Positions 3,030 to 3,447 of a stretch of 64,000 bases of DNA are shown here, in pieces. How positions within the stretch are numbered: position 1 is the stretch's first letter; each line of letters begins with the position of its first letter. The stretch lies in assembly GCA_964016885.1 (NCBI GenBank), contig OZ024750.1:15128001-15192000 (forward strand), given 5' to 3'. The notes beneath the pieces were generated by a model. That model had not been told where the DNA came from. It made no database searches and worked only from the letters and a program-made list of their open reading frames with translations. Position numbers and translations under genes: made by a program. This DNA comes from Eledone cirrhosa. Its lineage: Eukaryota.

Positions 3030-3447
3030 TATTAATTCCAAATATTAACAAAATAGATATTCTTGTGATCAATTATATTTTATTATACATATTTCAGAGG
3101 TACTGAATTAAGTTCAACAGTACGTCCTCATCAGATAAAATAAAATGATACATGACATACCCTGACATGGTAGATGGTTAAGATTTAATCAAGGTAGTTA
3201 AATTTTAACCATCTACCATGTCAGGGTATGTCATGTATCATTTTATTTTATCTGATGAGGACGTACTTTTGAACCTAATTCAGTACCTCTGAAATATGTA
3301 TAATAAAATATAATTGATCCCAAGAATATCTATTTTGTTAATATTTGGAATTAATATTAATAACTCTGGAAAAATCTGTAGAGTGCTTCCAATCTATTGT
3401 AAAACTCATTCTTTGATGTACTCATTGAATCTTGTTTAACTCTTAAA
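3030..3447 (+). mobile_element. Family A fold-back element (~160 bp inverted arms plus 3' extension) in (TA)n
   Basis: Arms ~3030-3189 and ~3198-3356 are near-perfect reverse complements. Confidence 0.85.
3244..3310 (+). ncRNA. Type I hammerhead ribozyme (family A); mirror copy on the minus strand at ~3076-3142
   Basis: Stem I TATTTTAT/ATAAAATA, CTGATGA, stem II GGAC-GTACT(G)..(C)AGTAC-CTCT, GAAA, stem III ATATGTAT, AUA cleavage triplet. Confidence 0.8.

Follow-up and report, generated by a model that had tools for sequence, protein, structure and literature searches.

The hairpin at positions 3030-3447 of the 64,000-nt stretch of Eledone cirrhosa DNA analysed here (the window) consists of two 5′-truncated copies of an abundant repeat with a hammerhead motif, placed head-to-head in TA-rich DNA, and likely represents one insertion of a Penelope-like element (PLE), possibly of the Hydra clade. 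The two copies, their junction and their 3′ ends, 90 nt apart, can be read from the window itself, and public sequencing runs contain longer copies of the repeat as well as fold-backs whose turning points vary.

The original prediction of a 160-bp hairpin was borne out (Table 1). The arms (3030-3188 and 3198-3356, separated by a 9-nt spacer) can pair at 155 of 159 positions, and RNAfold forms one extra G-U pair, giving 160 bp with a 7-nt loop. The fold of 3030-3447 reaches -250.6 kcal/mol (z -33.1), a stability equalled by none of 100 shuffles. The locus is compact (417 nt) and includes, outside the hairpin, the one-sided tail. Ten additional 5′ nucleotides of the minus copy make up the hairpin loop, as can be told from the upstream consensus of the family, which ends in the same 10 nt. 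The TA-rich 16-mer present at 3010 and again at 3447 may be a target-site duplication, an insecure assignment for a sequence with 24 occurrences in the window, counting both strands. The arms differ at four sites (3204, 3268, 3275 and 3320) and have in common letters that are rare in the family, namely G at 3347 (T in 95-97%) and T at 3279 (C in 58-86%), so that they either derive from one template or have been homogenised.

Table 1. Features of the hairpin locus and its flanks, numbered from the first letter of the window
Feature	Position	Strand	Remarks
Left TA-rich flank	3010..3029		First 16 nt recur at 3447-3462
Minus copy	3030..3198	-	5′-truncated at 3198; ends at the short 3′ end of the family (mirror of 3356)
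Type I hammerhead fold, minus copy	3076..3142	-	Core 3134-3084; cleavage predicted between 3084 and 3083; stem II matches most of the family
Head-to-head junction	3189..3198		The truncated copies overlap by 1 nt (T3198)
Plus copy	3198..3446	+	5′-truncated at 3198; extends to the long 3′ end of the family
Type I hammerhead fold, plus copy	3244..3310	+	Predicted cut between 3302 and 3303
Plus hammerhead, stem I	3244-3251/3303-3310	+	
Plus hammerhead, core segments	3252-3258 and 3291-3294	+	
Plus hammerhead, stem II with C-C mismatch	3259-3267/3282-3290	+	
Plus hammerhead, palindromic stem III	3294-3301	+	
Tail, 90 nt, one-sided	3357..3446	+	Between two recurrent 3′ ends
Bulged hairpin	3363..3386	+	6 nt beyond the short end; candidate reverse-transcription start signal
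Right (TA)n tract	3447..3547		Likely target

The mirror-image ribozymes with an 8-bp stem I that had been predicted on the two strands are present as full motifs diverging from the centre, with CUGAUGA...GAAA...AUA cores at +3252-3302 and -3134-3084, each closed by the 8-bp stem I. The order CUGANGA, GAAA, UH within a closing stem I is that of a type I hammerhead, and the pair closing stem II is G10.1-U11.1, in keeping with the R10.1-Y11.1 rule, while a C-C mismatch lies inside stem II. The perfect helix attributed to the minus copy was likewise found (6 bp, GUACUG/CAGUAC); in the plus copy a private G>T change at 3268 leaves 5 bp and weakens stem II, the family letter at this position being G in 99% of the X3 contig depth and 84% of the X22 reads. 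When single arms are folded, the stem II probability is accordingly about 0.12 for the plus copy versus about 0.95-0.99 for the minus copy, and in-register stem I has a probability of at most 0.05. All 8 positions of stem III are self-complementary once G-U pairs are counted, making it a palindrome. The monomer folds weakly (-1.2 and -5.0 kcal/mol), whereas a double hammerhead is computed at -14.0 (plus) and -21.6 (minus) kcal/mol, as compared with -2.4 and -10.0 for a pair of monomers. By its weak palindromic stem III and the favoured double fold, the hammerhead is predicted to be of the dimer type.

Folded in isolation, the motifs do not exceed shuffled sequences in stability (z -0.1 to -1.1). 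Rfam gave nothing at gathering level over the whole window, and at E<=10 no hammerhead family was among the 22 and 7 matches, which were generic hairpin miRNA and snoRNA models below cut-off and were rejected as matches of shape. A degenerate hammerhead pattern has 3 matches in the window versus 0.00 expected, a circular count for a pattern derived from those same sites, and no match in either the metagenome contigs or the viral contigs. A core match at +48408, where no stem II is evident, was set aside as due to chance. On the minus strand, 24740-24686 holds a minimal hammerhead of the PLE type, in which A9 is followed by an extra nucleotide and stem III is palindromic.

The family context was drawn from public sequencing runs, five of which, out of eight, gave matches (none in X18, X4 and X9). 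The records matching the element number 2581, 2981 and 2311 contigs in X1-X3 and 3144 and 3000 raw reads in X21 and X22, respectively, and in 375 reads the family continues upstream of 3198. It has two 3′ ends. At the long one, 264 reads with a loose end behind 3440 and 202 with one behind 3444 enter (TA)n; at the short one, around 3356, five contigs have a TA loose end behind 3357 and read ends pile up at 3349 and 3352. The minus arm of the hairpin ends at the ~3356 site and the plus arm at the ~3446 site, leaving the 90-nt tail.

Joints seen in other copies were then compared: of 28, 15 were listed, and after two in-arm deletions had been dropped 13 were of the fold-back type. The break lies upstream of one hammerhead in eight of these 13, of none in five and of both in none, in a detection that is biased against symmetric or farther-upstream junctions. 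A fold-back thus need not have two hammerheads, although the joint counts do not tell how rare two-hammerhead ones are. A joint 3159/3081, found in X1 and X2 contigs at depths of 103 and 138, has one side at the mirror position of 3305, which is three letters beyond the predicted cut. The points at which other copies resume pile up at 3281-3290 (3′ strand of stem II) and 3375-3396 (3′ side of the tail hairpin), which may reflect stalling of the reverse transcriptase (RT) or an aligner artefact. That fold-back points seem to cluster at the edges of helices was not taken as evidence, since the aligner might break at variable loops.

Fold-backs of the same build are common in the window. The test covered 15 of 26 listed pairs, the other 11 being mostly dispersed-repeat pairs and simple palindromes, and in 10 of the 15 one arm abuts (TA)n while the other carries a tail of 38-141 nt; nine of these tailed fold-backs, from several families, are additional to the one at 3030-3447. 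It might be objected that the palindrome is a fold-back artefact of assembly or library preparation, given that no listed read or contig spans the junction of 3030-3447 together with the flanks, and that at each of the four sites where the arms differ the tailed plus arm has the derived letter, as judged by what most of the family shows, a distribution that is insignificant alone (chance about 1 in 8). We consider such an artefact highly improbable, however: the arms end at the two biological 3′ ends of the family and differ at four sites, many analogous junctions occur in independent short-read data, and the nine other tailed fold-backs stand beside it.

Among these other elements, 57675-58088 (arms and loop 57713-58088) is a fold-back of another family with a hammerhead core on each strand; its arms match at 185 of 186 positions around a 4-nt loop, the left tail is 38 nt long, the base of stem II is U-U as in many Hydra rows, and the sole arm difference falls within stem II. 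One family accounts for three fold-backs, at 7052-7153, 25544-25676 and 28974-29090, each with a 77-nt tail, and two of the three show a bulged hairpin 5 nt beyond their short arm. Other fold-backs with tails at (TA)n are 4846-4959, 35500-35921, 7341-7632, 58215-58449 and 63139-63403, with tails of 43, 38, 60, 61 and 141 nt, respectively. The window also holds an abundant SINE-like family of about 190 nt, with a cluster at 31182-32228, in which both orientations and near-identical inverted pairs are found, and about 15 other places. Two similar ORF fragments at 6286-6636 (-) and 47234-47728 (+) have no Pfam match and resemble what we take to be the C-terminal end of a LINE protein; the first sits between long inverted arms at 5828-6793.

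Positions varying by at least 15% in runs X3 and X22 were compiled, and in the 40 of 44 rows listed none of the 19 positions of core and stem III is among them, as against 31 of 198 positions elsewhere. The four variants that occur in the stems all retain pairing: those at 3250 and 3310 yield G-U pairs, that at 3268 restores G-C, and that at 3290 (5% of X3 depth, 22% of X22 reads) turns G10.1-U11.1 into a canonical G-C. For changes that break pairs the Fisher test gives p=0.0004, a value that would become p=0.09 if the four unlisted rows all broke pairs and that is computed over related copies. A diverged copy of the hammerhead at 36127-36200 has the identical G-U closing pair, C-C mismatch and stem III design, and between these two families, the only ones in the comparison, stem II differs by six two-sided changes and stem I by one, all of which keep the fold. 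Three lines, i.e. low variation of the core, covariation and the predicted palindromic dimer fold, say that the hammerhead motif has apparently been kept by selection in the family. The diverged hammerhead (36097-36256, +) has a 15-bp stem II and sits inside short inverted repeats (~20 bp non-TA) that lack a tail and are flanked on either side by (TA)n.

A short, non-coding, palindromic, TA-flanked element of high copy number could also be a MITE, or a DNA transposon of the fold-back kind, with terminal inverted repeats that resemble a hammerhead by chance. The conservation of the ribozyme fold with covariation makes this scarcely credible, as do the asymmetric ends with their 90-nt tail and the continuation of the family upstream; the variable, truncated centre by itself already largely refutes it.

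If the locus is the work of a PLE, the insertion would have begun with a GIY-YIG endonuclease cutting both strands of a (TA)n tract. A reverse transcriptase would then have elongated the two cut ends, with the same uncleaved RNA as template for each, from about 3446 and about 3356, until the two cDNAs halted near 3198 and were joined; both would by chance have passed the hammerhead, leaving one per strand. The motif stands 54 and 144 nt inside the two 3′ ends, and an intact hammerhead inside both ends is consistent with an uncleaved RNA template. It could also be that, with the same Penelope-like origin, the inversion arose by self-priming, with a fold-back on either an antisense template or the first cDNA, and not from two cut strands, as has been proposed for head-to-head Penelope inversions (PMC3846280). 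The rare letters common to both arms would fit this too, and one of the joints folds back at 3281/3283 beside a 4-nt palindrome. We nevertheless think it unlikely, for self-priming alone leaves two fixed arm ends 90 nt apart unexplained, the overlap at the junction is merely 1 nt, and an Anolis element has been reported to use two internal RT starts and to extend both strands in vitro (PMC11167929).

Under the two-strand scheme, the predicted dimer-type hammerhead would act in tandem or multimeric transcripts of the element and not at 3030-3447, where it is probably inert: a single sense ribozyme per strand allows no dimer in cis, and read-through would bury it in dsRNA. The latter point, sequestration of the ribozyme upon read-through, had been part of the original prediction and agrees with our folding, in which the plus-strand stem II has a probability of 0.0000 at all five tested lengths containing stem II and read-through transcripts of both strands fold at about -250 kcal/mol. 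That transcription from either direction meets a sense ribozyme holds only insofar as there is one on each strand; transcripts entering from the flanks copy the antisense arm first, so that a sense ribozyme would be exposed only by a start inside the ~100-nt centre. The suggestion that the hairpin serves as an ADAR or Dicer substrate is plausible if the locus is transcribed, in view of siRNAs matching inverted Penelope regions in transgenic flies (PMC3681739) and of hyper-editing of palindromic repeats and of a lizard Penelope (PMC5625713), but the arms themselves bear no editing scar, a strand-polarised A-to-G excess being absent with the polarity in just one of their four differences.

The idea that silencing is the built-in purpose of the arrangement is not supported: the layout is the standard Penelope footprint, and none of the 13 listed joints, from a detection biased against symmetric ones, lies upstream of both hammerheads. 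In its strongest form it would make the mirrored ribozymes a selected switch, in which single-arm transcription leads to cleavage and read-through to silencing via dsRNA. The stable read-through fold predicted to abolish the hammerhead on both strands, and the published siRNAs and hyper-edited palindromes, count in favour of such a switch. We judge it very unlikely all the same, because fold-back points vary with both ribozymes kept in none of the listed joints, the plus ribozyme has decayed at 3268 with the loss of stem II probability given above, the monomer fold is weak relative to the double form, A-to-G polarity is confined to a single arm difference, and the siRNAs from inverted Penelope do not silence Penelope efficiently (PMC3681739). 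Failure of a single arm to cleave, which had been put forward as a refutation, would be a poor one, since no activity is expected from the monomer of a dimer-type hammerhead. Processing of the hairpin as dsRNA seems plausible given transcription, and would be a known by-product and not evidence of design. The mirrored ribozymes, as well as any editing or siRNA, are probably ordinary by-products of copying.

A possible assignment to the Hydra clade draws in part on the tail. A pattern for its bulged hairpin, built partly from the 3030-3447 locus itself and from two Hydra consensus ends, has 3 matches in the window, where shuffles average 0.02, and all three lie 5-6 nt past the short arm of a fold-back (3363, plus 25682 and 29096, which belong to one dissimilar family). 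By eye, a comparable hairpin is clear in two, looser in two and absent in two of six new Hydra consensus tails, and G-U at 10.1/11.1 occurs in 3 of 25 listed Hydra families (PMC8557442 and its File S2, respectively). Insertion at (TA)n and a hammerhead near the 3′ end are present as well, features common to other clades and hence not diagnostic alone. Six short motifs had no exact match in the Naiad, Chlamys and Hydra consensus files of the PMC8557442 supplement. Pfam searches with 150 of the 176 window ORFs (at least 55 aa) found neither an RT nor a GIY-YIG domain, and four ORFs gave sub-threshold, unrelated matches; upstream of 3198 the loose ends extend the family sequence by 30 nt. The protein features that mark the Hydra clade are RWK, DKT and CxCX5C motifs with no CCHH, together with RT phylogeny. 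Taken as a hint, the tail hairpin suggests the Hydra clade and an insertion working like that of a Hydra-type PLE. We would go one step further only tentatively, at something short of an even chance, to a twofold proposal: that this family and the copy at 36 kb represent a distinct hammerhead subtype, marked by G-U closing, an invariant C-C and an AUAYGUAU dimer palindrome, and that the bulged hairpin serves as start signal for a dimeric RT of the Hydra clade, which uses a single RNA as the template for both strands of a cleaved (TA)n tract. If true, an RT dimer reading such start signals would mass-produce perfect hairpins, possibly a major source of dsRNA for ADAR and Dicer.

The locus is minor on its own, one among very many copies, and such fold-backs would raise the dsRNA load of the genome if transcribed in bulk. 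Its 417 nt nevertheless offer a compact test substrate for how PLEs form inverted copies and tails: both 3′ ends are mapped, the tail holds a candidate start hairpin, and the two hammerheads, one intact and the other weakened, form a natural comparison.

A limited literature search, with Repbase and Dfam outside its scope, returned no paper on this family among those listed under octopus and hammerhead ribozyme, nor anything on Penelope twin priming with inversion and GIY-YIG or on hammerhead G10.1/U11.1. Several published systems can be set beside the locus. Metazoan non-LTR retrozymes resemble the family in being short, AT-rich, non-coding as far as seen, of high copy number and related to PLEs, and in carrying a type I hammerhead (PMC7229834; bioRxiv 10.64898/2026.07.22.740005). 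They are defined in the same two sources as tandem units, however, whereas 3030-3447 has no head-to-tail tandem of hammerhead units and its tail enters (TA)n and not another unit, as does the 3′ end of the family in the loose ends listed. Dimer-type PLE hammerheads, inactive as monomers and weak even as dimers, are likewise of type I with a long stem II, a short palindromic stem III and a favoured double fold (PMC4209133; PMC6765202). The hammerhead described here differs from them in having G10.1-U11.1 instead of the conserved G-C and a C-C mismatch in stem II, and in lacking an additional nucleotide between 9 and 10.1. Dual hammerheads on opposite strands are also on record, 100-700 bp apart (PMC4209133), and for Penelope-13_HM a hammerhead is listed on each strand (PMC8557442 File S1/S2).

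A mechanistic parallel is Poseidon_Ac (PAc) of Anolis, whose protein, acting in vitro at AT-rich DNA, cuts both strands and extends them, uses an uncleaved RNA and has two internal RT starts that bound the tail (PMC11167929). The locus would share the two starts bounding the tail, the cutting and extension of both strands and the uncleaved hammerhead template, but PAc is of another clade and spacing, and its reactions were seen in vitro while we infer those at 3030-3447. Members of the Hydra clade (for example Penelope-13_HM, Hydra-2_Amil, Hydra-2_Ajap and Hydra-1_Obim) target (TA)n and have, in most rows, the hammerhead roughly 100-200 nt from the 3′ end (PMC8557442); in our own reading of its File S2, none of the Hydra-clade hammerheads listed there combines a C-C mismatch with this stem III. 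Compared with EN+ PLE insertions in general, no ORF is present at the locus or linked to the family, and the tail is 90 nt versus the 30-40 bp published. In other respects the agreement is close. Such insertions have an inverted, 5′-truncated copy at the 5′ end, a tail at one end and (TA)n targets (PMC8557442), and head-to-head inverted pLTRs with an optional tail have been described for them (PMC3846280); the locus shares the head-to-head truncated inverted copy, the tail at one end, the hammerhead near the 3′ end and the microsatellite target. On this comparison we regard the mirrored layout as the known footprint of Penelope insertion.
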